From Actinomycetes bacterium (GTDB lineage: Bacteria > Actinomycetota > Acidimicrobiia > Spongiisociales > UBA5794): a stretch of 64,000 bases of DNA. Location of the stretch: the NCBI GenBank assembly GCA_023336815.1, contig JAMBLJ010000036.1:13991-77990 (forward strand), read 5' to 3'. Both the position numbers and the translations under genes were made by a program. Of the stretch, positions 26,974-64,000 are shown piece by piece; the first letter of the stretch is position 1, and each line of letters opens with the position of its first letter. The notes beneath the pieces were generated by a model. The model saw nothing but the letters and a program-made list of their open reading frames with translations, had not been told where the DNA came from and ran no database searches.

Positions 26974-27005
26974 CGATCACCAGAATACCGGGACATGGGA
27001 ACGGC

Positions 27006-27875: not shown

Positions 27876-27882
27876 CGTTCGG

Positions 27883-30100: not shown

Positions 30101-30109
30101 GGTGTCGAT

Positions 30110-30892: not shown

Positions 30893-30911
30893 CGACACGT
30901 GGCCGATGCAA

Positions 30912-33496: not shown

Positions 33497-33625
33497 CGCG
33501 GCGAGTGTAGAAAGGCGTCCCCGATACTCGATGCACCCAGCCAACCCATCGAAGATCTCGCCAAGGTCGTTGGCTTGTCATGTTCGTGATGTCTGCACTG
33601 CTACGCCTCTGGTTAGGCTCGCCGT

Positions 33626-48686: not shown

Positions 48687-49355
48687 CTACTTCCCCCTGA
48701 GTGCTAGCGCAACGGCCTCAACGCGACTGTGAACTCCGAGTTTTGCCAGGATGTGCTGGATGTGGTTTCGGACAGTTGCCGGTGAAAGGAACAACTCTTC
48801 GGCGATCGCCTTGCCATCGAAACCTTCGGTGAGCAACTGGAGCACGTCGCGTTCCCTCGGGGTGAGCGCTGAGAGATGCTCGTTCGATGCTGCAGTGGCA
48901 GGAGTGCGGCCATCGAGTCGCTGCACGATCAGTCGCTCGAGTTCCGGGGGAAGCGAGACCTCGCGGATGAGGTGGATCAGCCGACAAGCCTCGCGCATCT
49001 CGATGGGGGGTACGATCGTTGAGGCGCTCAGCCACAGTGTCGCCCCTGAGGCGGAGCGTCCGAGTACTTCTTTCGTCTCAACCGTCTCGTCTTCCGTGCC
49101 AATCTCGGCTGCGGGACACATTCCGTTGCACACGACGTCGCCGCAGCGGTCCCGCCAACATAGGATCTCGTGACATGGACGGCCGAGAGCCTCGTCTGAT
49201 CGGTAGCCGAGAAGATCCGTCGCGGCGTCGTTCCAGGCGACGATGCGCAGATCCGGCCCGATCGCAACCATCGCGTCGCTCGTTCGTCCCATCACGTCGA
49301 GAAGTTCGACGAGAGACCCCTCGATTCCCGGTTCTATCGCTGTGACACTGGCCAT
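48687..49355 (-). CDS. PAS-domain LuxR-family transcriptional regulator (Cys-rich PAS)
   Basis: N-terminal PAS-like fold with CHEILCWRDRCGDVVCNGMCP (5 Cys), C-terminal GerE/LuxR HTH LTPRERDVLQLLTEGFDGKAIAEELFLSPATVRNHIQHILAKLGVHSRVEAV. Confidence 0.8.
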   Translation of the reverse strand: MASVTAIEPGIEGSLVELLDVMGRTSDAMVAIGPDLRIVAWNDAATDLLGYRSDEALGRPCHEILCWRDRCGDVVCNGMCPAAEIGTEDETVETKEVLGRSASGATLWLSASTIVPPIEMREACRLIHLIREVSLPPELERLIVQRLDGRTPATAASNEHLSALTPRERDVLQLLTEGFDGKAIAEELFLSPATVRNHIQHILAKLGVHSRVEAVALALRGK

Positions 49356-49412: not shown

Positions 49413-49913
49413 CTACCCATTGGCGCGGGTCCGCAACACCTCGAGGATCCCTCCTGCGGACAGGATCGTCCGCATTTCTTCTGGCAGAGAGTCGCCCTGG
49501 TATGTGTCACCCGTTGTGCGGTTGGTGACGGCTCCTGTGGCAAGGTCGACCGCGATCACTTGACCCTCCTCGAACACGTCGTGTACACCTTCACATACGA
49601 GAACAGGCAACCCGACTGCAACTGCGTTTCGCATGAAGATTCGAGCAAGCGACTCTGCGACCACACAGGCCACACCTACCGCCTTCAAGTTCTCGGGGGC
49701 TGTCTCCCTACTCGATCCACAGCCAAAGTTGGATCCCCCAACGATGACATCGCCTGGTTGACATTCCGATGCGAAGACGGGGTTCACAGATTCGAGTACA
49801 TGCAGCTTGCGTATCTCAAGTGGTGCAACAGCGTATGTGCCGGGCGACAGAACATCGGTACTGATGTCGTTTCCGAACCTCCACACCCTGCCTTGTACCA
49901 GTGTCTCAGGCAT
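49413..49913 (-). CDS. 3-isopropylmalate dehydratase-type small subunit (LeuD-like, archaeal/short type)
   Basis: 166 aa; GRVWRFGNDISTDVLSPG and VIVGGSNFGCGSSRE swivel-domain motifs of aconitase-family small subunits. Confidence 0.85.
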   Translation of the reverse strand: MPETLVQGRVWRFGNDISTDVLSPGTYAVAPLEIRKLHVLESVNPVFASECQPGDVIVGGSNFGCGSSRETAPENLKAVGVACVVAESLARIFMRNAVAVGLPVLVCEGVHDVFEEGQVIAVDLATGAVTNRTTGDTYQGDSLPEEMRTILSAGGILEVLRTRANG

Positions 49914-51177
49914 GTTTCACTCCCTGATCTCGCGGATCGGCGATCGCACCGGCAAGCGCTGAGGCGGCTACGGTCGCTGGTGATGCAAGGAAGATCTCTG
50001 CGTCTGGGCTTCCCATACGTCCGATGAAGTTACGATTGTGGGTCCCGATGCAGCGCTCGCCCGGAGCCATCAGACCACCGTGGCCACCGAAACACGGGCC
50101 ACATCCGGGTGGAAGGACAGATGCACCTGCGTCGACGAGAGTCGCCAGTACTCCGGTTTCCATTGCCTCCTTCAGGACGTCGCGTGAGGCGGGTACGACG
50201 AGTAGTCGCACACCCGGTGCGATATGTTTTCCGGCAAGCACCTCGGCTGCTGCCCTCAGGTCCTCGATCCGGCCGTTGGTGCACGAACCAAGGAAGGCTT
50301 GCTGGATGGTGAGTCCCTCGGCATCAGCGATCGGGCCGACTCTGTCGACCTCATTAGGCATGGCGATCTGTGGTTCGAGGTCCGAAAGCGAGATCTCATG
50401 CACCGTCTCGTAGACGGCGTCGTCATGCGGGCCGAACGGCTCACACCCGATGCCTCCGTGATCAAGGAGGTACGAGTTCGTGATGTCGTCGGCTGCGAAC
50501 AGACCGAACTTCGCCCCCATTTCCACCGCCATGTTCGCGACAGTGAGCCTGCTCGACATGTCAGCCCTGGAGGCTGCTTCGCCTCCGAACTCCATGGCTT
50601 TGTACTGGGCGGCATCCGCGCCGAAGCGACCTGCCAGGTACAGGATCACATCTTTCCATGTCACTGTCGGCTGGAGGGAGCCTGTGAGTTCAAACCGGAT
50701 CGTCTCGGGAACACGGAACCACAACCTTCCCGTTGCAAGCGCGTAGACCATGTCGGATGTTCCGATCCCGGTCCCACCCGCTCCGAGCGCACCGTAGGTT
50801 GTTGTGTGCGAGTCGGTGCCAACGACGAGTGACCCCGGCCGAATGTGACCGTGTTCGGGGAGGAGCTGATGACAGATTCCCGTGCCTGAGTCGTAGAAGG
50901 CCTCGATTCCGAGGCGAGTGACGTGGTCGCGGATCCGTTGATGGATAGCCGCCGCTTCAGCGGATGGCGCAGGGACGAGGTGGTCTATGACTACAACCGT
51001 CCGTTCGGGATCGAACACATCATCGAATCCGACATCCGCAAGCGTGTCGAAGACCTGGGCAGCGAATATGTCGTGCAGCAGAGCGAGGTCGATGTCGGCG
51101 ACAATGAACTCGCCAGCGACCACAGATTCGTTTCCTGTCGCTCTGGCCAGGATCCGTTCTGCCTGTGTCATTCCCAT
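49906..51177 (-). CDS. 3-isopropylmalate dehydratase/homoaconitase-type large subunit (LeuC-like, short type)
   Basis: Aconitase-family large subunit with Fe-S ligand Cys regions (GSCTNGR, PPGCGPCFGG); likely start MGMTQAERIL at 51177; overlaps leuD-like start by 8 nt. Confidence 0.85.
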   Translation of the reverse strand: MGMTQAERILARATGNESVVAGEFIVADIDLALLHDIFAAQVFDTLADVGFDDVFDPERTVVVIDHLVPAPSAEAAAIHQRIRDHVTRLGIEAFYDSGTGICHQLLPEHGHIRPGSLVVGTDSHTTTYGALGAGGTGIGTSDMVYALATGRLWFRVPETIRFELTGSLQPTVTWKDVILYLAGRFGADAAQYKAMEFGGEAASRADMSSRLTVANMAVEMGAKFGLFAADDITNSYLLDHGGIGCEPFGPHDDAVYETVHEISLSDLEPQIAMPNEVDRVGPIADAEGLTIQQAFLGSCTNGRIEDLRAAAEVLAGKHIAPGVRLLVVPASRDVLKEAMETGVLATLVDAGASVLPPGCGPCFGGHGGLMAPGERCIGTHNRNFIGRMGSPDAEIFLASPATVAASALAGAIADPRDQGVKHA

Positions 51178-51193
51178 TGTCGTGACTCCGTGT

Positions 51194-51940
51194 TCATCCT
51201 GCACCAAGGCTTCGACCACCGCACACGTACAGGGTCTGTCCTGTCACGTAGGAAGACTCATCCGCAGCGAAGAAGAGTGCAGCGTTTCCGATATCGCTCG
51301 AGGTCCCAACACGCTTGGCAGGGATCGTTTTGATAAGTCGTTCCTGGACCTCCTCCTTCAATCCACGGAACAACGGTGTGTCCACCAGGGCTGGTGCGAT
51401 AGCGTTGGCCGTGACACCGTAGCGAGCCATCTCGAGTGCCAGAGATCGGGTGAGGCTGATCACAGCACCCTTGGATGCGGCGTAGTTGGCCTGGCCCGGC
51501 CCACCGAGCCACGCCCTCGATGAGATGTTGACGATCCTGCCGTATTCCTGCTCCATCATGTGTGGCGCAGCCGCCCGACACGTGAGGAACTGTGACTTGA
51601 GATTGACCTGAAGGACGGTGTCCCAGTCCTCCTCGCTCATCTTCGCTAACCATCCGTCCCGAGCCATACCTACGTTGTTGACGAGAATATCGATGCGTCC
51701 GTACGAGTCGATAGCAGCCTGGATGAGCGAGTTCGCACCTGCTGACATCGACACATCTGCGGCATGGCCTGTGACTTCGTGCCCAGCGTTGATGAACTCA
51801 TCGACGACCTCGTCCACCTTGTCAGGGAACAGATCGTTGATGACCACCTTTGCACCCGCGGCACCGAGCGTCTCAGCGATTCCTTTGCCAATGCCCTGAC
51901 CCGATCCTGTGACGACCGCAACCCGATCTTTGACGTTCAT
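51194..51940 (-). CDS. SDR family oxidoreductase (FabG/3-hydroxyacyl-CoA dehydrogenase-like)
   Basis: ATG at 51940 with GAGGAAAACA RBS; TGSGQGIGKGIA, NNVG, catalytic YAASK; ORF track N-terminal 184-aa extension is spurious. Confidence 0.85.
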   Translation of the reverse strand: MNVKDRVAVVTGSGQGIGKGIAETLGAAGAKVVINDLFPDKVDEVVDEFINAGHEVTGHAADVSMSAGANSLIQAAIDSYGRIDILVNNVGMARDGWLAKMSEEDWDTVLQVNLKSQFLTCRAAAPHMMEQEYGRIVNISSRAWLGGPGQANYAASKGAVISLTRSLALEMARYGVTANAIAPALVDTPLFRGLKEEVQERLIKTIPAKRVGTSSDIGNAALFFAADESSYVTGQTLYVCGGRSLGAG

Positions 51941-51953
51941 TGTTTTCCTCTCT

Positions 51954-52793
51954 TCATCGTCCGGTGAACTCGGGCGGTCGTTTGTCGATGAACGCCTGGA
52001 TCCCCTCGTCTCTGTCCTGGCTCGCACGGAGAACGGCATGGCTGGTCGATTCGAGTTCGAGTCCTGTCTCGAGATCGGTTTCGGTCGCTCGATTGACGAG
52101 TACCTTGACGCGGTCATGGGAGAGCGGTGCACGGCTTGCGATGCGCTCGGCAAGCGCCATCGTTGCTTCCATGAGATCGTCGTCCGGCACGACACGGTTG
52201 ACGAGACCCATACGAAGCGCATCCTGTGCGCTGATGTGATCCGCTGTGAACATGAGCTCCTTGGTGAAGCCGGGCCCGATGAGACGGGTCGCACGCTGGG
52301 TACCACCCGCACCAGGAAGGCTTCCGACCTTCGCTTCAGGGAAGCCGAGTCGCGAGCTCTCGGTACACACGCGCAGGTCACCCGACAAGGCCAGCTCGAG
52401 TCCTCCACCGAGGGCGTACCCCGAGATCGCCATGATGACGGGCACGTGCATGTTCTCGAAACGACCGAAGACGTCGCGCACGAGGATGCCAAGCGGATCG
52501 TGTATCAATCCGGCCTCGAAATCCTTTCCCCTACTTTTGAGATCAGCCCCAACACAGAACGCCTTTGTACCGGATCCCGTCACGACAAGTACACGGGTCG
52601 CAGCGTCGGATTCGACGGCCTGAACGATGCTCTTCATCGTTTCGAGCATCGGCACGGTCATGGCGTTCATCGCGGTTGGCCGGTTCAACGTCAGGACACC
52701 AACTGCGCCCTTGCACTCGTAGAGGACAGGTGCCTCGGCGGAGGTGCTGTCTCGATCATCTGTCACGGTTGATCCCTTTCCTGGTGTGCTCAT
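51954..52793 (-). CDS. enoyl-CoA hydratase/isomerase (crotonase) family protein
   Basis: [42 protein letters not shown] oxyanion-hole/catalytic motifs. Confidence 0.88.
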
Positions 52794-53995
52794 GTCTTTG
52801 ACGCAGCCATCACCACGCCGTCCTCGTTGAGCTGCTCGATATCGGATGGTGTGAACCCGAATTCGTGGAGGATCTCATTGGTGTGTTGGCCAGCGATTGG
52901 GGGTGCTGGCCCTGTCGGGTCACAGGGTGTGTGTGAGAAGCGCCCGGGGAAGCCAGGAGAGCGAACCTCTCCCGTGGAGGGATGGTCGACCGTGACGATC
53001 GATCCACCCTGTGTGATGTGATCTTCGGCCATCAGTTCTGGATAGGACAGCAGTGGTCCGCAGAGGATGTCCGCTTGATCGAGGGCCTCGACCCAGTCAG
53101 CGGTACATCGTTCAGAAAAGAGTGGTTCCACGATCTCTCTGAGGGCAGCACGATGGTTGACCCGCTTCTCGTTCGAATCGAATCGATCGTCGACAGCGAG
53201 ATCGGGAATTCCCAGGACCCCGCAGAGCGCCACCCATCGTTTCGGGGTGTAGGCGGCGATCATGACATATCCGTCCTTCGTCCGGTATGCCTCGTTCGGC
53301 GCGGCGTAGGGCGCAGCACTGCCGAGCCGCTGTGGCGACTTCCCGCTGGCCAAGTACATCGAAAGCGGGACAACCTGATACGAGAGCAGAGCATCGAGGA
53401 GCGACACATCGATTCGCTGGCCGCCGCCTGTGCGCTCTCTCGCGTAGAGGGCTGCCAGGATCGATTGGGAAGCGAACACCCCGCCAGCCATGTCGGCCGC
53501 GGGTACACCAACCTTCACTGGAGGACCGTCCGGTGTTCCCGTCACACTCATGATGCCGCCCATTGCCTGTGCAACACCATCGACGCCAGGGCGATCACGC
53601 CACGGCCCCGATTGGCCGAACGCGGATATCGCTGCATAGATCGCCATGGGATTGGCTTTGGCGATGGCGTCGTAGCCGACCCCGAGCCTGTCGGCGACAC
53701 CGGGCCGGAAACTCTCGAGCACGATGTCGGATCGTTCGGCGAGACGCAATACGACTCCTGTTCCGCCATGTCGTTTGAGATCGACAACGATGCTTCGCTT
53801 GTTCCGATTCATACCGAGGAACGCAGCTGCGACATCACCAACGAATGGTGGTCCCAACCCTCGTCCCCATTCACCGCCTGGCGGTTCCACCTTGATGATG
53901 GTGGCGCCGAGGTCACCGAGATGCATCGCACACGTTGGACCGGCCGCTCCCTGTGAGAGGTCGAGAACGGTGACGCCATCAAGTGCTCCGCGCAT
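52790..53995 (-). CDS. CoA-transferase family III (CaiB/BaiF) protein
   Basis: [39 protein letters not shown]-terminal signature of family III CoA-transferases; ATGA-type overlaps on both sides. Confidence 0.88.
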
Positions 53996-54605
53996 GCACC
54001 TGTTCCTCCCGGGTCAAACCGAGTGTTGGGGCAGGCGATGCACCACGAACTACGAACTCGGCGATCTCGGCGGCTATCTCTTCAGGGGAGTATCGACCGG
54101 ACGGCTGGTACCAGCGAACGACGGAATTGCACATGCCAAGAATGGCCTTCGCCGCGATCCCAACGTCCTGCTCAACGAAATCGCCCGTTGCGATGCCCTC
54201 CTTGAGCATGTCTCGAAAGATACGTTCGTATCGATCCCGATTCGCGATATGTGTTGTCATGAAGTCGGGACTCAGATAGCGACCCTCTTCGATGAAACAT
54301 GCAATCGCATCCCTGTCACGGATCGCTGCCACCGTGTGAAGAGCGATGGCAGTTCTCACACGTTCAGCAATCGGGAGGTCGGACTCAGCAACCTCGCTCA
54401 CAACCGGAGTGACCCGGTTGACGGTCAACTCGATGATTTCCGAGAGGAGCGCCTGCTTGCTCGAGAAGTGGTGATACAAACTTGATTTCGAGATCCCGAC
54501 TTCTGTTGCGAGGTCGGCCATACTCGTCCCGTTGAAGCCCTTGTTGCGAAATAACGCCGCGGCTTCGAGCCGGATTCGTGCCCTGGTGGTGATCTCGTCC
54601 GTCAT
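53979..54605 (-). CDS. TetR/AcrR family transcriptional regulator
   Basis: N-terminal HTH RIRLEAAALFRNKGFNGTSMADLATEVGISKSSLYHHFSSKQAL; embedded within operon (overlaps both neighbours). Confidence 0.88.
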   Translation of the reverse strand: MTDEITTRARIRLEAAALFRNKGFNGTSMADLATEVGISKSSLYHHFSSKQALLSEIIELTVNRVTPVVSEVAESDLPIAERVRTAIALHTVAAIRDRDAIACFIEEGRYLSPDFMTTHIANRDRYERIFRDMLKEGIATGDFVEQDVGIAAKAILGMCNSVVRWYQPSGRYSPEEIAAEIAEFVVRGASPAPTLGLTREEQVHARST

Positions 54606-55138
54606 GGAGATGTTTCACGGACGAGGTGAGCTCCAGCCTCGAGAGCCTTGAGGTTCATGTCGCGGTGTTTCGCTGGAACACGTGCGGCCACGGCGGTGCG
54701 TAGCGCCTCGTCCTCGACCACGTCCGCGACTGCCTGGAGTACTCCAAGAGCGACGACACCCGTCACGAGCTGGCTGCCAGATATCGCTCTCGAGGTGTCG
54801 ACAACGGCGAACTGACGTGCGGTCCCTGCCAGGCTGGCTGGTGCACATCTACCATCGACGATCAATCGTCCGTCCGGTGAGAGCTCGGGCTGGTATCTCG
54901 TATATGCCTCTGCGCTCAGCACGATGAGGAGATCTATGTCGTCTGCAAGGGGAAATCCGATCGGTCCGGTCGCTATCACGACATCCGATCTGCTCGCGCC
55001 GCCCCTGGACTGTGGCCCATACACCTGGCTGTGAGTTGCGTGACTTCCCGAAAGGATGGCGGCCTCGGCGAGGATCCTGCCAGCGGTGACAACACCCTGT
55101 CCACCGGCTCCGGCGATTCGGATCTCGTTGCGGTTCAT
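54602..55138 (-). CDS. 2-oxoacid:ferredoxin oxidoreductase gamma subunit
   Basis: IRIAGAGGQGVVTAGRILAEAA...QVYGPQSRGGASRSDV (PorG/KorC family). Confidence 0.85.
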   Translation of the reverse strand: MNRNEIRIAGAGGQGVVTAGRILAEAAILSGSHATHSQVYGPQSRGGASRSDVVIATGPIGFPLADDIDLLIVLSAEAYTRYQPELSPDGRLIVDGRCAPASLAGTARQFAVVDTSRAISGSQLVTGVVALGVLQAVADVVEDEALRTAVAARVPAKHRDMNLKALEAGAHLVRETSP

Positions 55139-55953
55139 GACCTCCCGACCTTTCGTACCCCGGAGAACACGGGGCGCAGCTCGTTGTGAAGCACTCCTGT
55201 TGCCAGACCGGGAGGTGGGGCTGATGACGGGATGTGGTTGACGAAACGTTTGTCGGACAGTGGCCCGGAGACTCCTTCATCGCGCACTGACATCCACGTC
55301 AACATTTCAGCTCCACCACCGACCTTGTTGTACCGACCGAAGTACTCAGGGCAGTCGCTGATGACCTCGATAAACGAAAAACCGGGATGGTTCAATCCAT
55401 CGGCCATGACCTTTGTCATGTCCATCGGATTCGCTGCGAGGACTCTGGCCACGAACGAGGCACCAGCGCCGATGAGGAGTTTGCAGGCATCGAAGTTCGG
55501 TTCGGTGTTGCCGGCAGGTGTTGTCGATGCGATCGCCCCTTCCGGGGTCGTTGGAGCAGCCTGTCCACCGGTCATCCCGTAGATCGAGTTGTTGAGCAAG
55601 AGCACAGTGATATCGATATTTCGTCGAGCGGCATGGATCAGATGGTTGCCGCCGATCGCCAGGGCATCACCATCACCAGTCACCACGACGACATTGAGAT
55701 CCGGGCGTGCGAGTTTGAGCCCCGTTGCGAACGCTGGTGCCCTGCCATGTGTTCCGTGCAGGGTGCAGAAGTCAACATATCCCGCGAGGCGGCTGCTGCA
55801 CCCGATCCCCGCGACCATCGCGATCTTGTCCTGATCCAGTTGGAGTTGGTCAACCGCGGTGAGGAACGACCGCAGAACGATGCCGTGGGCACACCCCGGG
55901 CACAGGACATGGGGCATCGCCCATTCTCTGAGATATGATTTCACATCCGTCAT
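55135..55953 (-). CDS. 2-oxoacid:ferredoxin oxidoreductase beta subunit (TPP-binding)
   Basis: CPGCAHGIV N-terminal Cys motif, TPP-binding GDGDALAIGGNHLIHAARRNIDITVLLLNNSIYGMTGGQ. Confidence 0.88.
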   Translation of the reverse strand: MTDVKSYLREWAMPHVLCPGCAHGIVLRSFLTAVDQLQLDQDKIAMVAGIGCSSRLAGYVDFCTLHGTHGRAPAFATGLKLARPDLNVVVVTGDGDALAIGGNHLIHAARRNIDITVLLLNNSIYGMTGGQAAPTTPEGAIASTTPAGNTEPNFDACKLLIGAGASFVARVLAANPMDMTKVMADGLNHPGFSFIEVISDCPEYFGRYNKVGGGAEMLTWMSVRDEGVSGPLSDKRFVNHIPSSAPPPGLATGVLHNELRPVFSGVRKVGRS

Positions 55954-57116
55954 TGGCGCACCTTCTCTGCATGCAGGATCTCTTCGAGCAGGGTCGTCGG
56001 TGTTATCGGTTCGCCGTCAGCCTTGAGATATCCGAGGACCTCGGCATTGCCTGCCACGGCACGTTCGACTTCTCCGATGAGTTGACCGAGGTTCATCTCT
56101 GCAACGAGAATGGTGTCGACCCTTGATGCGACGGCAGCGACTTCTCTTGCTGGGAACGGCCACAGGGTCACAGGGCGAATGAGTCCGACCTTGATCCCGG
56201 CATCGCGCGCCCGTTCAACCGCCTCGCGGGCAGATCGTCCGACGATGCCATACGCGAAGATCGCGATGTCCGCGTCGTCGAGCATGTAGGTGTCCACCTC
56301 GACGATCTCATCGAGGTGAGCCTCTATCTTGCGATGAAGACGAGCGACAAGAGCTTCAGCTACCTGAGCGTCGTTGGTAGGAAAGCCTCGTTCGTCGTGA
56401 GCGAGACCTGTGACATGGAACCGGTATCCATCGCCAAAGGCTGGGAGCGGTGGTGTACCGTCCGGCGGTGCGACCATCGGCCAGAAGTCGTCCGGATCAT
56501 CATGTGGCTGTTCACGATCGATCACATCGACCGTCGCGGGGAGTACGACGCTCTCACGTGTATGTCCGATGATCTCGTCGTAGAGGACGATGACCGGTGT
56601 GCGAAACCGCTCCGCGAGGTTGAAGGCCTTGACCGTGACGTGGAATACCTCTCCGACAGACGACGGTGCGAGCACGATGATGGGGTGATCTCCATGGGTG
56701 CCCCAGCGTGCTTGCATAACATCTCCCTGGGAGGGGGACGTTGGGAGTCCGGTGCTCGGACCACCCCGCATGACGTTGACGATCACACACGGGACTTCGG
56801 TCATTGCGGCGAATCCAATGTGTTCTTGCATGAGCGAGAACCCTGGCCCGCTTGTTGCGGTCATCGACTTCATTCCACCGAGTGATGCGCCTACAACGGA
56901 TGCGAGAGATGCGATCTCGTCCTCCATCTGCACGAAGACCCCTCCGATGTTTGGGAGCAGTCTCACCATGTGCTCAGCGATCTCCGACGATGGTGTGATG
57001 GGATACCCACCGTAGAACCGACACCCTGCTGCGAGGGCACCTTTGACACAAGCTTCGTTTCCCTGGATCAGTTGGGCCTGAGCGAGCGGAATCTCCGGTA
57101 GTCGGGTTTCGGTCAT
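55950..57116 (-). CDS. 2-oxoacid:ferredoxin oxidoreductase alpha subunit
   Basis: GNEACVKGALAAGCRFYGGYPITPSSEI, domain I/III of PFOR-like alpha subunits. Confidence 0.88.
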   Translation of the reverse strand: MTETRLPEIPLAQAQLIQGNEACVKGALAAGCRFYGGYPITPSSEIAEHMVRLLPNIGGVFVQMEDEIASLASVVGASLGGMKSMTATSGPGFSLMQEHIGFAAMTEVPCVIVNVMRGGPSTGLPTSPSQGDVMQARWGTHGDHPIIVLAPSSVGEVFHVTVKAFNLAERFRTPVIVLYDEIIGHTRESVVLPATVDVIDREQPHDDPDDFWPMVAPPDGTPPLPAFGDGYRFHVTGLAHDERGFPTNDAQVAEALVARLHRKIEAHLDEIVEVDTYMLDDADIAIFAYGIVGRSAREAVERARDAGIKVGLIRPVTLWPFPAREVAAVASRVDTILVAEMNLGQLIGEVERAVAGNAEVLGYLKADGEPITPTTLLEEILHAEKVRQ

Positions 57117-57991
57117 CAGGCGCTCGATTCATTCGTGGTGTTCGTTCCGACGACCGCCAGCTCCCGTGGTGCATGGATATCAATGGCGAAATCGGGACAG
57201 AGAATCTCGCACAACCTGCACCCTGTGCAGGCTTCTGGATCGACGATGGTCAGCTTTCCGTCTACGTCGACCGCAAGGCAGTACTCGGGACAGACCCTCG
57301 AACAGATGTCGCAGCCCTTGCACCAGTCGTGTCGGATCTCGATCTCGTGAGGTCCGGAGAACCCGTCTGGATCCTGCGCGGCATCGGGTACTCGCGCCTC
57401 AGCGACCTGTCGACCCGCTCGGAACGCCGCGAGGTTGATCTTCTCGGTCCCGGCAGGGACCAGATCTGCGATCGCTGCTTCCCAGTGGACGTCGTCGATG
57501 TCGATGAAGGCTGCCACCGTGCCGAGGATCACGCTGTTGGCGGCACGAACGTTGCCGAGATCCGTTGCAGTTGCCGTTGCGTCGATGAGTCGCGTCTTGA
57601 GATGGCGGCTATCGAAAAGCTCGCCATCGATACCGGGGTAGCGCCGCAACCATGAACGTCGATCAGTGCATGCACCAGGGGGCACGATCGTTCGGATGTC
57701 TGCGACAACCGCTCCTCCGTCTCGAACGTACTCGACCCACCGCACCGCTTCGGCCCACTCGAATGCTGCAAGGACCTCCGCGCTCCCGAGGGGGACGAGC
57801 GGACTATCGACTCGCTCACCCCACCGAATATGGCTGAACACGGATCCTCCGCGCTGAGCCATTCCGTGGACCTCGCTTTGTTTGACATCATGACCTGCAC
57901 GCATGAGCGCGTCCGCAACGATCATGCTCGCCAGGATCACTCCCTGGCCCCCGACACCAGCCAGCAGCAGGCCTCGTGACCCCTCAGGCAT
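57116..57991 (-). CDS. iorB: indolepyruvate:ferredoxin oxidoreductase beta subunit fused to 2x[4Fe-4S] ferredoxin domain
   Basis: N-terminal GVGGQGVILAS...EVHGMAQRGGSV (IorB/gamma-type), C-terminal CKGCDICSRVCP...CTGCRLCEILCP ferredoxin motifs. Confidence 0.8.
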   Translation of the reverse strand: MPEGSRGLLLAGVGGQGVILASMIVADALMRAGHDVKQSEVHGMAQRGGSVFSHIRWGERVDSPLVPLGSAEVLAAFEWAEAVRWVEYVRDGGAVVADIRTIVPPGACTDRRSWLRRYPGIDGELFDSRHLKTRLIDATATATDLGNVRAANSVILGTVAAFIDIDDVHWEAAIADLVPAGTEKINLAAFRAGRQVAEARVPDAAQDPDGFSGPHEIEIRHDWCKGCDICSRVCPEYCLAVDVDGKLTIVDPEACTGCRLCEILCPDFAIDIHAPRELAVVGTNTTNESSA

Positions 57992-59798
57992 GGGAAACCT
58001 CCGCTGTGTTCACGAGGACGATCGCACGTGGGGGACACAGTTGAACACACAGGGTGCAACCGGTGCAGGTAATGGGGTCGATGACAACTTTGCGTCGCCC
58101 TTCGAACAGTTCGTCTGACCATACGATCGACGGACATCCTGGTGTCATACATGCCTGGCAGGCGGTGCATGCCTCAGCGAGAACGGTGAACGGTGTGTCT
58201 CTTACCTTCATCGGTGCTTCGACGCACGGCCTGTTCGTGATCACGACCGACGGGCCTGCGTGACTGATAGCGTCCCCGAGCGCTCCGTAGGTTGCTGCGA
58301 GGTCGTACGGATCGATGACCTTCACATCCTTGACCCCGACGGCTGTGCACATCGCAACCAGGTCCACCGGAGTCGCTGCGGTGCCTTGCAGCGTGACTCC
58401 GGTGCCTGGATGTTCCTGGCCGCCGGTCATGGCAGTGGTGCCGTTGTCGAGAATGAGAACCGTGATGTTGGCATGTGCGTACACCGCATCCGCCAGTGCG
58501 GCGACGCCACTGTGGAGGAAGGTCGAGTCTCCGATCGTCGCTACGACCGGTCCATCCGCTCCTCCGGAGGCGGCCATGCCGACTGCCATTCCGATACTGC
58601 TTCCCATCGCGACGCACGTGTCCATCGATGAGAGGGGTTCGAGCGCAGCAAGCGTGTAGCAGCCGATATCACCGGTTACGACTGCGCCCAATCTCTTGAG
58701 TGCCAGGAACGGAGGAGTGTGCGGGCAGCCCGGGCACATCAGCGGTGGTCTTGTGACCGTTGATGGGGCAGCCACGATCGGTATGCCCTTCGATACCAGG
58801 CCTGCTTCCGCAAAGCCGGCCCGGACCACATCCGGACTCAGTTCGCCGATCTGGGGGAAAAGCGACTTGCCCTCCACGTCGATTCCCGCTGCTCGAAGAT
58901 CGTTCTCCACATACGGGTCGAGTTCCTCGACGACGAACAGGCGGTCAACCGAATCGGCGAACCGTCTGATGCGCTCCATGGGGAGCGGATAGCTCATACC
59001 GAGCTTGAGGATGCGTGCATCGGGGAGCACCTCGCGGACGTAGTGGTGTGCGATCCCGGACGTGATGACGCCAAAATCGGTCCCCGATCCGAACGCTTCC
59101 GTGAGCGGACTTTCTTCGACGTAGTCACGCATGTCATCCAGACGCTTCAGTACCACGGGTCGTCGTCTTCGGGCATTTCCTGGGATCATCACGTACTTCG
59201 CTGGATTCTTCGTGAAGCCGAGGACAGGTCGGTCCAGTCGTTCCGCTAGTTCGACAAGACCCCTGTTGTGCGAAACACGTGTGGTCGTACGTACGAGCAC
59301 CGGTGTGTCGAAGGTTTCAGAGATCTCGAAGGCAAGCGCTGTGTATGCCTTTGCCTCAGCACTGTCGCTTGGCTCGAGGAGCGGCACTGCCGCCATGCGA
59401 GCGTACGCCCGGTTGTCCTGCTCGTTCTGGGAACTGTGCATGCCGGGGTCGTCTGCGCTGATCACAACGAGTCCAGCGCCTACGCCCGTATATGCGGCCG
59501 TCATGAACGTGTCGGCCGCCACGTTAAGACCAACATGTTTCATGGTGACGAGAGCCCGTACCCCACCGAGCGACGCTCCGAGTCCCACATCGAGTGCTAC
59601 CTTCTCGTTCGGTGACCAGCGAACGTCGATGTCATCACGATTCGCTATCGATTCGAGGATCTCGGTGCTCGGCGTACCCGGATATCCGACTGCCACGAGC
59701 ACACCCGCTTCGACCGCCCCCCTCGCAACCGCCTCGTTCCCTGACATCAGGACACGAGTGACCTCGTCGGCTTTCGAGGCAGTTGGCGCGGTGATCAC
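57984..59798 (-). CDS. iorA: indolepyruvate:ferredoxin oxidoreductase alpha subunit
   Basis: 604 aa; LMSGNEAVARGAVEAGV...GYPGTPSTEI, TPP-binding domain, C-terminal Cys clusters CTACQACMTPGCP / CTGCTLCVQLCP. Confidence 0.85.
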   Translation of the reverse strand: MITAPTASKADEVTRVLMSGNEAVARGAVEAGVLVAVGYPGTPSTEILESIANRDDIDVRWSPNEKVALDVGLGASLGGVRALVTMKHVGLNVAADTFMTAAYTGVGAGLVVISADDPGMHSSQNEQDNRAYARMAAVPLLEPSDSAEAKAYTALAFEISETFDTPVLVRTTTRVSHNRGLVELAERLDRPVLGFTKNPAKYVMIPGNARRRRPVVLKRLDDMRDYVEESPLTEAFGSGTDFGVITSGIAHHYVREVLPDARILKLGMSYPLPMERIRRFADSVDRLFVVEELDPYVENDLRAAGIDVEGKSLFPQIGELSPDVVRAGFAEAGLVSKGIPIVAAPSTVTRPPLMCPGCPHTPPFLALKRLGAVVTGDIGCYTLAALEPLSSMDTCVAMGSSIGMAVGMAASGGADGPVVATIGDSTFLHSGVAALADAVYAHANITVLILDNGTTAMTGGQEHPGTGVTLQGTAATPVDLVAMCTAVGVKDVKVIDPYDLAATYGALGDAISHAGPSVVITNRPCVEAPMKVRDTPFTVLAEACTACQACMTPGCPSIVWSDELFEGRRKVVIDPITCTGCTLCVQLCPPRAIVLVNTAEVSHA

Positions 59799-61051
59799 TG
59801 TGGTGCGGATGTGCTCAGCAGCGGCATGATCTCGTCCTCTGCGAGGACATGGTCAGATTGCTTTGCTGCGGCGAGGATCTTGTCGACCGTTGCATCGTCG
59901 AAGCTATGTCCGCGTTTCATGAGCCAGGCGACAGCGTTGGCCTTTCCACTCATCGGTCCGACGGTGATCTCCTGCTCACGTCCGAGCTCGTCTGCGGGTA
60001 CGCCGCTGTAGATGCGGTTCGCGAGCCATGTGTCTCCTGTGCGGAGCGCCTTGAGGACGGCAGCGGCGTGGACACCGGTGCTCGTCTCGAACGCGTCCTT
60101 ACCAACACTGGGACAGTTGTTCGGGACAACGGTCTCCGTTGCGGTAGAGATAGCTCGACAGTACTCGGGCAGAGCGTGAAGATCGGTGTCGAGCCATCCG
60201 AGCAGCTTGAGATTCACGAGCAGCGTCTCCATTGGTGTGTTGCCGACGCGTTCGCCGATACCGAGACCGCACCCGTGAACTCTGTGGGCACCAGCCGAAA
60301 GTGCAGCAAGCGAATTGATCACGGACAGGTTGCGATCGCGGTGCCCGTGCCAGTCGATCTTCACCTCTTCGCCGGAATCCGCGACGATCTCGACGGCGAG
60401 AGCAACGAGAGCTCTGGTTCCCCACGGGGTGGCATGCCCGACCGTATCTGAGAGACAGATCCGCCGCGCCCCTGCTTCGATCGCTGTTTGGTACACCTTG
60501 CGTAGAACCTCTGGTCGTGCACGAGTTGTGTCTTCGGTCACGTACATGACCTCGAGCCCCGATTCACGGGCAAGCGTTACGGCATCGTGTGTTGTACGAA
60601 CAAGGAAGTCGACGTCCCACCCCTCAACGAACTGTCTGATGGGGCTTGAGCCGAGGAAGAGGGCGGCCTCTATCGCAACACCCGAGCGTTGCTGCGCCTC
60701 AGCGATAGGAAGGATGTCGGCTGCGTGGGTTCGTCCTGCGCAGTTCGGCTTGACGTTGAGTCCCGCCTTGTCGATCTCGGTTGCAAGCGCTACCACGTGG
60801 TCGAGAACCACCGGATCCGCACCGGGGTACCCGATGTCTGCGGCATGGATGCTGAGGGCTTCGATCCGGTGCAGGATGTCGAGCTTCTCATCAAGGGTTG
60901 GCTGGCGCACGGATGGACTCTGAAGTCCATCCCTGAGGGTTTCGTCGTCGAGTTCAACTTCGGTTGGCGGCGAGATATCGCCTTCTCCTATGAGGTTCCA
61001 GTCGTAGAGCAGCTGTTGTTCCCGTGTCTCGGAGGTTTCTTTCGTGGTCAC
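59795..61051 (-). CDS. DRE-TIM metallolyase, 2-isopropylmalate/homocitrate/citramalate synthase-like (short form, no regulatory domain)
   Basis: DETLRDGLQS, HGHRDRNLSVINSLAALSAGA, GIGERVGNTPME motifs of LeuA/NifV/CimA family; 418 aa; first gene of minus-strand operon. Confidence 0.75.
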   Translation of the reverse strand: MTTKETSETREQQLLYDWNLIGEGDISPPTEVELDDETLRDGLQSPSVRQPTLDEKLDILHRIEALSIHAADIGYPGADPVVLDHVVALATEIDKAGLNVKPNCAGRTHAADILPIAEAQQRSGVAIEAALFLGSSPIRQFVEGWDVDFLVRTTHDAVTLARESGLEVMYVTEDTTRARPEVLRKVYQTAIEAGARRICLSDTVGHATPWGTRALVALAVEIVADSGEEVKIDWHGHRDRNLSVINSLAALSAGAHRVHGCGLGIGERVGNTPMETLLVNLKLLGWLDTDLHALPEYCRAISTATETVVPNNCPSVGKDAFETSTGVHAAAVLKALRTGDTWLANRIYSGVPADELGREQEITVGPMSGKANAVAWLMKRGHSFDDATVDKILAAAKQSDHVLAEDEIMPLLSTSAPQ

Positions 61052-61283
61052 GTCGCCTCCCTGCGCATGTACCGTCCGGCCGTTCGGTTGGCTCCGTTAC
61101 AGGGTCACAGCCAGCCGGACTCCTGACAATCCGCCCGATGTGTCATATTCCTGATACGTCTGCATCAGATGTCGGTTCGGTCATCGGGCCGGGAAAGCGG
61201 GTGATGGGTGGCCCAGAGGGATCGGTGTGGGGTCGATGCATCAGGGAAATGGCGCCCGTGGCTCATTGACGCATCGGTGTGGG

Positions 61284-61781
61284 ATGGAGACACTCGTGGA
61301 GTCGACCGAACGGCCGGACGGTTGCACGATCATCGTGGCTGATCCGACTGGTGAAGGAGGAACATTGAGCGGATCAGCTGTTGCGGTGTCGTTCCGACCA
61401 GCCGAACTGGAGGTGCGACCCGATGGGTCTGGCAACCTCCTCGGGAGCAGATGTCAATCGTGTGGTGCCCACTTCTTCCCGATCAGGGAGGCATGCTCGG
61501 GTTGTCTCAGCAGAGACCTCGACGACGTCAGGTTCTCGACGAACGGAACGCTGTACACGTACTCCGTCGTTCGCCAGTCGACTCCAGCGTTCGAGGTGCC
61601 CTACGTACTCGGCTACGTCGACCTGCCGGAAGGTGTCCGCATCATGGGACAGATCACAGGATGTCCGATCGAGGACATCTCGATCGGCATGGCGGTGGAA
61701 ATGGTGCTTGAACCCTTTGGTACCGATGACGATGGGAACCCTCTCACCGGATTCCGATTCCGACCAGCGGAGGCATCATGA
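61284..61781 (+). CDS. DUF35 OB-fold/Zn-ribbon protein (thiolase partner; BbsA/ChsH2-C-like)
   Basis: Zn-ribbon CQSCGAHFFPIREACSGC followed by OB fold (YTYSVVRQS...GYVDLPEGVRIMGQI); start ATG 61284 or TTG 61365 after GAAGGAGG; stop overlaps thiolase start. Confidence 0.75.
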   Translation: METLVESTERPDGCTIIVADPTGEGGTLSGSAVAVSFRPAELEVRPDGSGNLLGSRCQSCGAHFFPIREACSGCLSRDLDDVRFSTNGTLYTYSVVRQSTPAFEVPYVLGYVDLPEGVRIMGQITGCPIEDISIGMAVEMVLEPFGTDDDGNPLTGFRFRPAEAS

Positions 61782-62923
61782 TGACCGGTGTCCATGTAGT
61801 GGGGGTCGGGATGACCCGGTTCGGGAAACACCCTGACAGCGATGCGACCGACCTCGGATCGGCAGCCCTTCTCGAAGCCATCGACGATGCAGGTATCGAC
61901 GCACGTCTCATCGAATCTGCGTACGTTGGTCACGTGTTCCAGGGAATGGTCACAGGCCAGCGGATCCTGGCACAGGTCGGCCTAGCTGGGCTACCGCTTG
62001 CCAACGTCGAGAACGCGTGCAGCAGCGGAGCTACAGCCATTAGGGAAGCGTCGCTTGCGATCCGGGCGGGTGAGAACGATGTGGTAGTGGCCATCGGCAC
62101 CGAACACCTCACGAGTAAATTCAGCGGGGCGCTGACACCGGATCCGAGCGATCCTGAGGCCGCAGTCGGGGCAACGATGCCTGGTGTATACGCCATGCGC
62201 GCACGTCGGTACATGGAAGAATTCGGGATGACCAGGGAACAGCTCGCGCTGATCCCTGTCAAGAACAAGGCGAACGCTGCGAGGAACCCGCTTGCCCACT
62301 TCCGCAAAGAGATCACCGTTCAAGATGTGCTCGACTCACGCCCGATCGCCGACCCGCTCCATCTGCACGATTGCTCACCCGTGACCGACGGTGCCGCAGC
62401 GGTGATTCTCATGAGCGACAAAGCTGCGAAACGGTTCGCCAACGGAAGGGGTGTTCGGCTTGCTGCGTCAACCCTCCGTTCCGGATCGGTCGATGTCACT
62501 CCCACATCGATGACGTTCGAACCTCTCACCTGGGACACGGCCAAGGATGCTTACGAACGCGCAGGGATCGGTCCTGATGAAGTCGACTTCGCCGAAGTTC
62601 ACGACTGCTTCAGCATCGCAGAGGTGTTGCGTGTCGAGGGGCTCGGTCTCTTCGAACAGGGAACCTACCCCTGGGCAGTCGAACGAGGTGAGGCGAACAT
62701 CGGAGGGCGACTTCCGATCAACCCGAGTGGCGGACTGATCGGCAAGGGTCACCCACTCGGCGGAACCGGTGTCGCACAGGTGGTTGAGGTCGTCAGACAG
62801 CTGCGAGGCGAGTCGGGCGATAGGCAGATCGAGGGCGCCAGGGTTGGTGTTGCCCACTGCCGTGGAGGAAAGGCAGTCGGCATCGAAGGAGCGGCGTGCA
62901 CGGTTCAGATACTGGTTCGCTGA
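61778..62923 (+). CDS. thiolase-like protein, SCP-x/nonspecific lipid-transfer-type (propanoyl-CoA C-acyltransferase-like)
   Basis: VHVVGVGMTRFGKH, active-site region NVENACSSGATAIREA, C-terminal GHPLGGTGVAQVVEV; 381 aa. Confidence 0.85.
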   Translation: MMTGVHVVGVGMTRFGKHPDSDATDLGSAALLEAIDDAGIDARLIESAYVGHVFQGMVTGQRILAQVGLAGLPLANVENACSSGATAIREASLAIRAGENDVVVAIGTEHLTSKFSGALTPDPSDPEAAVGATMPGVYAMRARRYMEEFGMTREQLALIPVKNKANAARNPLAHFRKEITVQDVLDSRPIADPLHLHDCSPVTDGAAAVILMSDKAAKRFANGRGVRLAASTLRSGSVDVTPTSMTFEPLTWDTAKDAYERAGIGPDEVDFAEVHDCFSIAEVLRVEGLGLFEQGTYPWAVERGEANIGGRLPINPSGGLIGKGHPLGGTGVAQVVEVVRQLRGESGDRQIEGARVGVAHCRGGKAVGIEGAACTVQILVR

Positions 62924-62928
62924 CACCC

Positions 62929-64000
62929 GTGGTCCCGAGCGGGCAACCCCTCCCGTTCGTTCTCATGCGGGGAGGAACGAGCAAGGCTGTGTTCCTCCGT
63001 GGCTCAGACCTCCCCCGGGACGTCGACGAGCGTGATGCCACGATTCTCTCGCTGTTCGGAAGCCCGGATCCCAGACAGATCGATGGACTTGGTGGCGCCG
63101 ATCTGCTCACAAGCAAACTGGCAATCATCGACCCACCGACGCACCCCGAGGCGGATATCGACTACACGTTCGCCCAGGTCAGCATCTCGGAAGCGGTCGT
63201 CGACTATGACATCAACTGCGGCAACATCTCTGCCGCCGTTGGTGCCTACGCGGTCGATGAAGGTCTCGTCGTTTCTGTCACGGAGCCGATCACCGTTGTC
63301 CGCATCCACAACACCAACACGGATCGAATCCTCCTTGCCCATGTGCCAACACACGGTGGGCGCGCCGCGGTCGATGGTTCCTATGTCGTTCACGGTGTAC
63401 CGGGGTCCGGTGCGCCGATCGGCCTTGATTTCGGGGCAACGGCAGGTGGCATCACTGGATCGCTCTTCCCGACAGGGAACGTCCTCGATGAACTCGTCAC
63501 CCCCTTTGGGTCGGTGCCAGTCTCCATCGTCGATCTTGCGAACCTGACAGTCTTCTTTGCTGCACGGGATGTTGGGATGGTTGGTACGGAGGGACCATCG
63601 GACATGACCGACGACATGTTCGCCAGGGTTGCAGCGATCAAGGCGGCAGCGGCGGAAGCGCTTGGTATCGACGGTGGCGGGCTGATCCCTGTCCCCGCCA
63701 TGGTTGCGGCACCTGCCAGCTACACGGCCTTTGCGTCTGGAACACGAATCGATGCCGAAGATGTCGATCTTCTTGCGAGGGTCGTTGGCGGTAGACCTCC
63801 TGTCCTGCACAAGGCATACCCTGGCACTCTTGCAGCATGTACCGGTGCAGCTGCCCTCATTTCCGGGACGACGGTCCATCGGGTTGCCAGGCAGCGCGAT
63901 TCAGATGAGGTGAGGATCGGCCACACAAGTGGTGTCATGCCCGTCAGCGCCAGGGTTGCGAGCGATGGGCAGGGGTGGTCTGTTGAGAGTGCGGTGTACA
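62929..64000 (+). CDS. PrpF/AcnD-accessory/3-methylitaconate isomerase family protein (3' partial, runs off window)
   Basis: Own translation: ...VVPSGQPLPFVLMRGGTSKAVFLRGSDLP...DYDINCGNISAAVGAYAV... (PrpF signatures MRGGTSKG and INCGNxSAAVG); no stop before window end; absent from ORF track; start GTG 62929 or ATG 62965. Confidence 0.75.
   Translation, partial: MVPSGQPLPFVLMRGGTSKAVFLRGSDLPRDVDERDATILSLFGSPDPRQIDGLGGADLLTSKLAIIDPPTHPEADIDYTFAQVSISEAVVDYDINCGNISAAVGAYAVDEGLVVSVTEPITVVRIHNTNTDRILLAHVPTHGGRAAVDGSYVVHGVPGSGAPIGLDFGATAGGITGSLFPTGNVLDELVTPFGSVPVSIVDLANLTVFFAARDVGMVGTEGPSDMTDDMFARVAAIKAAAAEALGIDGGGLIPVPAMVAAPASYTAFASGTRIDAEDVDLLARVVGGRPPVLHKAYPGTLAACTGAAALISGTTVHRVARQRDSDEVRIGHTSGVMPVSARVASDGQGWSVESAVY

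Follow-up and report, generated by a model that had tools for sequence, protein, structure and literature searches.

In the 64,000-nucleotide (nt) stretch of DNA analysed here, referred to as the window (contig JAMBLJ010000036.1 of an Actinomycetes bacterium, positions 13,991 to 77,990), the plus strand closes with an operon of three genes, all of them real, that encode a DUF35 protein, a thiolase and a PrpF-family isomerase, the window ending inside the last. We propose, with a probability of roughly 0.55, that this operon forms half of a catabolic unit under shared regulation, the other half lying on the minus strand across a divergent promoter region, which would convert arylpyruvates into aroyl-coenzyme A (aroyl-CoA) esters for the anaerobic benzoyl-CoA pathway. 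The arylpyruvates are proposed to derive from phenylalanine or tyrosine, and possibly from arylacetates as well. The evidence is entirely in silico and consists of sequence comparison and gene neighbourhood. Proteins were compared with Pfam profiles, with NCBIfam models and their equivalog cutoffs, and with all PDB sequences. Related loci were taken as contigs encoding homologues of the PrpF-like protein and of the LeuA-like protein of the minus strand, and further loci were obtained by scanning one genome per species with an alignment of the LeuA-like protein, followed by tblastn of every window protein. The region past base 64000 was judged from the closest relatives, loci L089 (PrpF 91% identical) and L002 (77%), and from P0001, a deposited 393-residue PrpF-family protein encoded on an 85.5-kb contig of an NCBI metagenome-assembled genome (MAG) labelled "Actinomycetia bacterium"; source-genome matches to the thiolase, P0001 and P0121 beyond the window gave nothing or Logan contigs of at most 2.3 kb (SRR15671255).

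The thiolase gene (61778..62923, plus strand) encodes a 381-residue protein of the SCP-x type (Thiolase_N 105 bits and Thiolase_C_1 125 bits in Pfam), matched best in the PDB by 7PXP_C (E 2e-84), the BbsB subunit of the Geobacter metallireducens benzoylsuccinyl-CoA thiolase, at 287 bits vs 230 for the next match and with 42.2% identity over the full length. The NACSSG cysteine, HDCF and GHP thiolase motifs are kept in the alignment to BbsB. As in BbsAB, the SCP-x-type thiolase gene adjoins a gene for a separate C4 Zn-ribbon/OB-fold DUF35 subunit, here a BbsA-like protein of 138 residues with a putative start at 61365 (61365..61781, plus strand), recognised by Pfam (zf-ChsH2 41 bits, OB_ChsH2_C 73 bits), NCBIfam and PDB. 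Its Zn finger has the canonical DUF35 pattern, C-x2-C-x10-C-x2-C (PMC12329534), with all four cysteines intact; its sole NCBIfam match is BbsA, and its PDB matches are an archaeal DUF35 protein (6ESQ_E, 68.7 bits) and BbsA itself (7PXP_A, 64.6 bits). The two genes are translationally coupled, the DUF35 stop TGA at 61779-61781 overlapping the thiolase ATG at 61778 as ATGA (61778-61781), an overlap already seen in the preliminary description of this DNA. None of the PrpF-family, DUF35 and thiolase proteins reaches an NCBIfam equivalog cutoff, and by that standard all three, the DUF35/thiolase pair with respect to BbsAB included, are relatives and not orthologues. The arrangement had previously been described as that of BbsA/BbsB or ChsH2/Ltp2, and only the first half of this assignment survives. 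Ltp2 is an aldolase that uses paired tyrosine residues (PMC12329534), and the Ltp2 structure 6OK1_A scores only 107 bits against the window thiolase; an aldolase of the ChsH2/Ltp2 or Sal/Shy kind was rejected on this score, the thiolase motifs and the free-standing 138-residue DUF35 protein. An archaeal-type thiolase/HMG-CoA synthase (HMGCS)/DUF35 complex was likewise rejected, no HMG-CoA synthase gene being present in the window or in the relatives.

The frame of the DUF35 gene is open from 61227, and ATG 61284 had been taken as its start. Translation probably begins at TTG 61365 instead, the upstream ATG being unlikely because the homologues called in relatives have 139-140 residues, because the similarity of distant relatives starts at the residue encoded by TTG 61365, because this codon is preceded by the putative Shine-Dalgarno sequence GAAGGAGGA, and because conserved non-coding blocks flank the ATG, which sits between two conserved elements, a TTGACG-17 nt-GACACT pair and an operator-like box. 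The divergent DUF35 gene is present opposite the LeuA-like gene as first described, but with a start at TTG 61365 the intergenic region would be 313 bp and not 232 bp.

The third gene of the operon (62896..64000, plus strand) encodes a PrpF-family, Mii-like delta-isomerase, of which the window holds residues 1-368 of 393. PF04303 matches at 326 bits vs a gathering cutoff of 27 and is covered from position 5 to 346 of its 371, since the window end cuts the match. The gene is missing from the list of open reading frames (ORFs) because its frame, open up to base 64000, runs off the window; the preliminary description had recognised both the absence of a stop and the omission from the list, and had translated the gene correctly. 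P0001 is 100% identical to the window part of the protein and aligns up to residue 376 of the 391 of the Mii structure, and tblastn leaves only the last 25 codons missing from the window. The earlier question of an interruption beyond the window can be settled with this full-length protein, by which the gene is intact in the source genome and not a pseudogene. P0001 begins at GTG 62896, after GAAGGAG, and would overlap the thiolase end by 28 nt, whereas the gene calls in L089 and L090 begin past the thiolase stop, like the alternative start GTG 62929; both starts are possible, and the spacing of 5 nt after the thiolase given previously holds with the second and not with the first.

The isomerase is, by its scores, nearest to the 3-methylitaconate isomerase Mii and not to PrpF proper, and the activity predicted for it is of the Mii kind: Mii (3G7K) matches at 355 bits and 53.6% identity, vs 211 bits for PrpF and 193 and 177 for the others (YbhH and oxalomesaconate isomerases) in the PDB. 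The assignment to an itaconate/maleate type of isomerase made beforehand agrees with this ranking. Residues K74 and C108 of P0001, invariant in 15 homologues, align with K62 and C96 of Mii, which we take to be its catalytic pair. Three other assignments were examined and rejected. The PrpF/AcnD reading, in the methylcitrate cycle, is disfavoured by a TIGR02334 score of 225 bits vs 441 and by the far closer Mii, and neither AcnD nor prp genes (PrpC, PrpB) were found in the window or the relatives. A 4-oxalomesaconate tautomerase would have to reconcile a score of 267 vs a cutoff of 440 and PDB relatives at 172-177 bits only. A nicotinate-fermentation pathway (Mii with DmdAB) would call for a mutase, an enamidase and a dimethylmalate lyase, which are missing, and CoA-dependent beta-oxidation genes are found instead.

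Across the divergent promoter region, Pfam and NCBIfam profiles recover the LeuA-like and LeuCD-like genes that the preliminary description had placed there. The LeuA-like protein (59795..61051, minus strand; HMGL-like 134 bits) is a Claisen condensing enzyme without a regulatory domain, proposed to be a benzylmalate synthase. It scores below all NCBIfam cutoffs for LeuA, NifV and homocitrate synthase (HCS), the best score being 180 bits vs 517, and its best PDB match reaches 115 bits only, by which it belongs to the HMGL-like superfamily and lies outside the isopropylmalate synthase (IPMS), homocitrate synthase and citramalate synthase families. Five pocket positions have been proposed to select the substrate in LeuA-family enzymes, and one of them, the alanine A73 of the benzylmalate synthase HphA, was experimentally shown to govern its selectivity for arylpyruvates (PMC12961565). 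The five positions of the LeuA-like protein, A105/M169/V171/C199/H259, are each invariant or at least 90% conserved, and read L/E/S/N/E in IPMS, H/R/T/S/H in HCS and A/D/A/M/S in HphA. The selectivity alanine of HphA is thus present where IPMS has leucine, and methionine, valine and cysteine replace the Glu/Ser/Asn of IPMS and the Arg/Thr/Ser of HCS; this pocket lends weak support to an arylpyruvate substrate. Homocitrate synthase was discarded as an annotation of this gene, the pocket having no Arg/His/Thr set.

The proposed partners of the LeuA-like enzyme are encoded farther along the same strand. An aconitase-family dehydratase of the LeuC/HacA/DmdA type provides the large subunit (49906..51219; NF001614 547 bits vs 385, TIGR01343 538 vs 386) and a LeuD/DmdB-type protein the small one (49413..49913; TIGR02087 163 bits vs 109). 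The short-chain dehydrogenase/reductase (SDR), a BbsD-like protein of 248 residues (51194..51940, minus strand; Pfam adh_short), has BbsD (7PCS_B) as its best PDB match, at 261 bits vs 212 for the best FabG and ahead of about 200 other SDRs; a listed ORF of 432 residues over this gene is an over-extension, and it hid a crotonase encoded in another frame. This crotonase-family enoyl-CoA hydratase of 279 residues (51954..52793, minus strand) bears a crotonase signature, matches NCBIfam enoyl-CoA hydratase models at no more than 247 bits and is given a BbsH-like role. A family III CoA-transferase of the dicarboxylate type (52790..53995, minus strand; CoA_transf_3 418 bits) has the succinate-glutarate and succinyl-CoA:mesaconate CoA-transferases as best NCBIfam matches. 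Toluene-pathway proteins are consequently among the closest characterised relatives of three proteins of the unit, namely the DUF35 protein, the thiolase and the SDR.

The remaining genes of the minus-strand operon encode a regulator and two oxidoreductases. The indolepyruvate (arylpyruvate):ferredoxin oxidoreductase (IOR) comprises an alpha subunit (57984..59798, minus strand), which passes TIGR03336 at 669 bits with a cutoff of 651, and a beta subunit (57116..57991, minus strand) that matches IOR beta models best and carries Pfam POR and Fer4 domains, the latter at residues 215-270. At 291 residues this beta subunit is about 100 residues above the usual length, the excess being a C-terminally fused ferredoxin domain of the 2x[4Fe-4S] type, and the fusion is kept in relatives (290-292 residues). 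A three-subunit 2-oxoacid:ferredoxin oxidoreductase (OFOR) follows on the minus strand (alpha 55950-57116, beta 55135-55953, gamma 54602-55138); the alpha subunit passes NF006412 (582 bits vs 411), and the beta subunit is best matched by a 2-oxoglutarate:ferredoxin oxidoreductase beta model. The TetR-family regulator (53979..54605, minus strand; TetR_N, TetR_C_24) is kept in the cluster and is a candidate binder of the two boxes described below.

The intergenic region links the two operons. Its 18-nt imperfect palindrome ACCGAACGGCCGGACGGT has exactly two matches in the 64 kb, against 0.11 expected, and both are operator-like boxes: box A (61071..61088, minus strand) just upstream of the LeuA-like gene, and box B (61305..61322, plus strand) just upstream of the DUF35 gene, the two forming an inverted pair, 61071-61095 and 61298-61322. 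Both are conserved in relatives, and in L013, where the operons lie 7.8 kb apart, each retains its own box. The shared 18-mer is computational support for co-regulation of both operons, the point that the preliminary description had wanted tested, and is probably the operator of the TetR protein of the cluster. A scan of 60950-61450 for canonical sigma-70 promoters and terminators called none; conserved hexamer pairs just upstream of each box (TTGACG-17 nt-GACACT on the plus strand and TTGTCA-17 nt-GACCCT on the minus strand) suggest, by their conservation, non-canonical promoters. More conserved non-coding blocks are found at 61125-61170 and 61235-61296 (TCAT-N6-TGATGCA; GATGCATCA...AAATGG), the TCAT-N6-TGATGCA block being the perfect palindrome CATCATTTACATGATG in L003; these blocks may be sites for a second regulator and non-canonical promoters. 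The earlier view of a single functional unit of about 15 genes gains from the same box at both operon starts and from synteny in 12 non-redundant loci, and the unit is larger still.

The cluster of LeuA-like, LeuCD-like, family III CoA-transferase, crotonase and SDR genes on one side and DUF35, thiolase and Mii-like genes on the other recurs in 12 related genomes. The core is kept in L007, L010-L014 and L018, and L002-L005 and L090 agree over the sequence that they cover. MAGs of Acidimicrobiia and Microthrix show the complete arrangement (L002-L005, L007, L010-L013, L016, L090). IOR and OFOR are regarded as accessory because L014 and L018, the latter a Gaiellaceae MAG, retain only the core without both, reduced to LeuA-like, TetR, CoA-transferase, crotonase, SDR, LeuC and LeuD on one side and DUF35, thiolase and PrpF on the other. 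Neither a LeuB-type (Iso_dh) gene nor an acyl-CoA dehydrogenase gene lies inside the core clusters of the examined loci, and Pfam annotation of the core clusters L002-L005, L007 and L090 revealed no glycyl-radical enzyme, a negative that covers these stretches and not whole genomes. A PaaK-type (AMP-binding_C_2) ligase gene is located between LeuD and LeuA in L017 (8635-9945) and beside DUF35 in L013 (2433-3740), and a class I/II aminotransferase gene upstream of the core in L015 (1212-2390); these neighbours hint at arylacetate and aromatic amino acid feedstocks. With an identity threshold of 65%, the LeuA-like and the Mii-like clade each count hundreds of members in metagenomes. More distant LeuA-like homologues (52-60% identity) from Acidobacteriota, Gemmatimonadota, Planctomycetota and others (most of L021-L088) mostly occur without the other cluster genes; they probably form a sister clade of different function and should not be pooled with the present one.

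The substrates are read as aromatic, that is, benzyl-substituted, and not as generic alkylmalates because genes of the benzoyl-CoA pathway extend the operon in relatives. PrpF is followed in nine loci by a trio of genes that NCBIfam matches best to 4-hydroxybenzoyl-CoA reductase (HcrCAB), namely to its gamma, alpha and beta subunits, the alpha-like protein scoring 872 bits vs 514 for the next family and the HcrB-like protein carrying a Cys-rich insertion. The nearest relative, L089, also has Hcr-like genes after PrpF. Behind the Hcr-like genes come Had, Oah and a Dch-like hydratase; Had directly follows PrpF in L002 and L090. Had and Oah are present in eight of the nine loci that extend far enough. 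In L004 both pass their equivalog cutoffs (449 bits vs 339 for Had, 569 vs 464 for Oah), and the best matches of the other genes there are HcrCAB, Dch and BcrA/B/D. On the opposite strand, L004, L005 and L090 then carry a pair of BcrA/D-type ATPases along with one or two HGD-D subunits, the latter best matched by benzoyl-CoA reductase B. In L090 (14071-18516) and L004 (18017-21179) these form a four-subunit class I benzoyl-CoA-reductase-like enzyme, with two BcrA/D-type ATPases and two HGD-D subunits, accompanied by a Cys-containing protein of 91-93 residues; these enzymes and the molybdenum enzymes resembling 4-hydroxybenzoyl-CoA reductase in both loci all score below equivalog cutoffs. The link to Had, Oah and Dch also takes other forms: in L014 these genes stand after LeuD, and in L039 and L046 they diverge from a LeuA-like gene with 56% identity; in these last two loci, unlike most of L021-L088, the LeuA-like gene adjoins Had, Oah, Dch and Hcr-like genes.

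Taken together, the core gene set fits one coherent scheme in which no gene is spare and none is missing. The LeuA-like enzyme would condense phenylpyruvate or 4-hydroxyphenylpyruvate with acetyl-CoA to 2-benzylmalate, for which HphA is the precedent, and the LeuCD-like dehydratase would convert 2-benzylmalate to 2-benzylmaleate. The Mii-like isomerase would then turn benzylmaleate into benzylidenesuccinate (phenylitaconate), shifting the double bond so that it becomes conjugated with the ring, a 1,3-shift as in dimethylmaleate/methylitaconate. Benzylidenesuccinate would be activated to its CoA ester by the family III CoA-transferase, with succinyl-CoA as the probable donor, the ester hydrated by the crotonase, the alcohol oxidised to benzoylsuccinyl-CoA by the BbsD-like SDR, and the latter cleaved by the DUF35/thiolase complex into benzoyl-CoA together with succinyl-CoA, these last three reactions being the hydration, oxidation and thiolysis described for the Bbs pathway (PMC10818641). 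The net conversion would be phenylpyruvate + acetyl-CoA + NAD+ + H2O to benzoyl-CoA + succinate + NADH, and the scheme involves neither a decarboxylation nor an acyl-CoA dehydrogenase step. A BbsG-type dehydrogenase would be dispensable because the Bbs-type reactions are entered at the enoyl level, and a LeuB-type enzyme because the leucine-type route is left at the maleate stage; Hcr-like genes would stand right behind the isomerase gene because 4-hydroxyphenylpyruvate would give 4-hydroxybenzoyl-CoA. The genes found after PrpF in relatives (Hcr-like, Had, Oah, Dch and the class I benzoyl-CoA reductase-like enzyme) would take over the product, and a TetR-type repressor acting on the 18-nt boxes would switch both operons together.

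OFOR and IOR would probably supply reduced ferredoxin for ring reduction. In Thauera, the reduced ferredoxin used by benzoyl-CoA reductase is regenerated by a 2-oxoglutarate:ferredoxin oxidoreductase whose genes accompany those of the pathway, a precedent that fits the role suggested for OFOR. Alternatively, IOR could interconvert arylacetyl-CoA and arylpyruvate, the carboxylating direction serving arylacetate entry, and arylacetate may be taken in through such a reverse IOR reaction.

Several observations weigh against this proposal. The substrates are deduced from homologues at 42-54% identity and from gene neighbourhood, and the aromatic link of this particular genome is drawn from its relatives, the window ending inside PrpF: no Had, Oah, Dch, Hcr or Bcr was found in the 64-kb window, where only weak cross-matches to crotonases appear, and in L018 neither Had nor Oah lies near the core. 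Among the enzymes, one of five pocket positions of the LeuA-like protein is common to HphA; the second thiolase motif is HDCF in the window protein vs HDAF in BbsB; the NCBIfam scores lie far below the equivalog cutoffs for BbsB (317 bits vs 750) and BbsA (85 vs 250); and the CoA-transferase is nearer to the SUGCT/mesaconate transferases than to BbsEF (270 bits for SUGCT vs 159 and 120 for the benzylsuccinate CoA-transferase subunits in the PDB). Moreover, IOR and OFOR, six conserved genes of the minus-strand operon, have no necessary role in the scheme, and in L017, L020, L076 and L080 LeuCD and LeuA accompany IOR while the flanks contain neither thiolase nor PrpF.

This last arrangement, together with an acyl-CoA dehydrogenase and a crotonase just upstream in L017, would be explained by an unlikely alternative in which IOR has a direct role. 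It supposes a one-carbon elongation, whereby the LeuA-like and LeuCD-like enzymes and a housekeeping LeuB-type enzyme turn phenylpyruvate into 2-oxo-4-phenylbutyrate, IOR or OFOR decarboxylates this to 3-phenylpropionyl-CoA, and benzoyl-CoA and acetyl-CoA are then formed by an acyl-CoA dehydrogenase together with the crotonase, the SDR and the DUF35/thiolase complex; BbsD-like and BbsB-like enzymes could handle unbranched aryl-3-hydroxyacyl- and 3-oxoacyl-CoA equally well. The core clusters have neither the LeuB-type dehydrogenase nor the acyl-CoA dehydrogenase that elongation needs, IOR and OFOR are missing from the cores kept in L014 and L018, and two conserved core genes would be left idle, those of the dicarboxylate-type CoA-transferase and of the Mii-like isomerase, whose translation is coupled to that of the thiolase. 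A role in the lower benzoyl-CoA pathway is, in our view, slightly less probable still. The SDR, crotonase and DUF35/thiolase would here take 3-hydroxypimelyl-CoA through 3-oxopimelyl-CoA to glutaryl-CoA and acetyl-CoA, the CoA-transferase would act on glutarate or succinate, and the LeuA-like, LeuCD-like and PrpF proteins on some aliphatic dicarboxylate. The adjacency to Had, Oah and Dch in relatives agrees with this, as does a succinate-glutarate CoA-transferase as the top NCBIfam match of the CoA-transferase, but that match scores 282 vs a cutoff of 750, and the most tightly linked partners, the LeuA-like, LeuCD-like and Mii-like proteins, are given no coherent role. BbsB-type SCP-x/DUF35 thiolases and BbsD-like SDRs are not known as enzyme types of pimelyl-CoA beta-oxidation, which also counts against it.

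The preliminary description, taken literally, amounts to a generic alkylmalate/alkylidenesuccinate pathway, in which non-aromatic 2-oxoacids, for instance from branched-chain amino acids or methionine, are converted to acyl-CoA and succinyl-CoA and the benzoyl-CoA neighbourhood is incidental. The chemistry works for any R-CH2-CO-COOH, OFOR and IOR families take many 2-oxoacids, Mii acts on small aliphatic substrates, and the L018 core lacks Had and Oah beside it; we nevertheless consider it improbable, to about the same degree as the elongation, since the unit is joined at operon level to Hcr-like and Had-Oah-Dch genes in three or more distinct arrangements, three of the enzymes find their best structural homologues in proteins of the toluene pathway, and the LeuA-like protein has alanine at the aromatic-selecting position of HphA, where IPMS has leucine. 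The arylpyruvate-to-aroyl-CoA unit is the reading that we prefer.

Other parts of the window were judged separately. A PAS-LuxR regulator gene (48687-49355, minus strand) shares the strand of LeuD, 57 nt downstream of it, and is neighboured by a hemerythrin gene (48120-48674, plus strand). A housekeeping set of the menaquinone type occupies 23983-30892 (isochorismate synthase, a MenD-like thiamine diphosphate enzyme, a MenB-like crotonase, a MenE-like ligase and an SDR), and the region 23983-36236, comprising menaquinone biosynthesis and an ATP-binding cassette exporter, was considered as part of the unit and set aside as unrelated.

If the proposal is correct, the unit would represent a third anoxic way to benzoyl-CoA from C6-C2 and C6-C3 aromatic acids. 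Two ways are known, the alpha-oxidation of phenylacetyl-CoA and the beta-oxidation of cinnamate or phenylpropionate. All carbons would be conserved, with succinate as the product vs two CO2, and the large, well-conserved LeuA-like clade and the Mii-like clade would receive a first physiological role. There is, in our estimate, an even chance that an undescribed anaerobic benzylmalate/benzylidenesuccinate route, with Bbs-like beta-oxidation to (4-hydroxy)benzoyl-CoA and succinate, is widespread in uncultured Acidimicrobiia and, operating without fumarate addition or alpha-oxidation of phenylacetyl-CoA, is also present in Gaiellaceae- and Kiloniellaceae-labelled MAGs. A search of the available literature on benzylmalate/benzylidenesuccinate-type intermediates found no catabolic route of this kind, and the new part, somewhat more probably than otherwise, would be the non-radical entry into a Bbs-type module. 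Matches to bbsA and bcrBC in sediment Acidimicrobiia have been published as toluene-degradation potential (PMC12008989). In the gene context described here that reading is probably wrong, because the genes have LeuA/LeuCD/Mii partners and no bss is found in the stretches examined; matches to bbsA/bbsB in metagenomes would then, in this context, more likely mark aromatic amino acid catabolism.

The closest known system is the Bbs toluene pathway (BbsEF, BbsG, BbsH, BbsCD, BbsAB; PMC10818641), with which the unit shares a DUF35 subunit with an SCP-x-type thiolase, a BbsD-like SDR, a crotonase and a family III CoA-transferase, and the proposed delivery of benzoyl-CoA and succinyl-CoA into benzoyl-CoA-pathway genes. 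It differs in having a core without a BbsG-type acyl-CoA dehydrogenase, one SDR in place of the BbsC/BbsD pair, a single-gene CoA-transferase nearer to SUGCT/mesaconate transferases, and the HDCF thiolase motif in place of HDAF. No benzylsuccinate synthase was seen among the Pfam-annotated genes of the six loci named above for glycyl-radical enzymes, the only ones in which it was looked for, and entry is proposed at benzylidenesuccinate through the LeuA-like, LeuCD-like and Mii-like enzymes, in contrast to fumarate addition to toluene.

The entry steps have their own parallels. Mii and the dimethylmaleate hydratase DmdAB belong to nicotinate fermentation in Eubacterium barkeri. The unit resembles this system in its isomerase (54% identity, residues aligned with Lys62/Cys96 conserved), in the LeuCD/DmdAB-type hydratase partner and in the shift between exo-methylene and internal double bond on a substituted succinate/maleate; the proposed direction is reversed (malate to maleate to itaconate type), the substituent is benzyl and not methyl, and the malate would come from a LeuA-like synthase, 2-methyleneglutarate mutase and dimethylmalate lyase being absent from the unit. 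The HphA/HphCD homologation system (PMC12961565) similarly combines a LeuA-family enzyme without a regulatory domain, which has the A73 alanine, with a LeuCD-type partner, but four of the five pocket positions differ, the unit has no HphB/LeuB-type dehydrogenase, its context is catabolic and not biosynthetic, and its product is proposed to leave the leucine-type route at the maleate. PrpF/AcnD of the 2-methylcitrate cycle II offers the PrpF-family fold next to an aconitase-family dehydratase, the scores and the absence of AcnD, PrpC and PrpB given above setting the unit apart. Finally, ChsH1-ChsH2-Ltp2, Shy-Sal and the archaeal thiolase/HMGCS/DUF35 complex (PMC12329534) also associate a DUF35 domain with a thiolase-fold protein; in ChsH2 and Shy, however, this domain is fused to a MaoC-type hydratase, whereas in the unit it is free-standing, the aldolases Ltp2 and Sal use other catalytic residues, whereas the unit thiolase keeps the NACSSG cysteine, HDCF and GHP, and the archaeal complex includes an HMG-CoA synthase, for which the unit has no gene.

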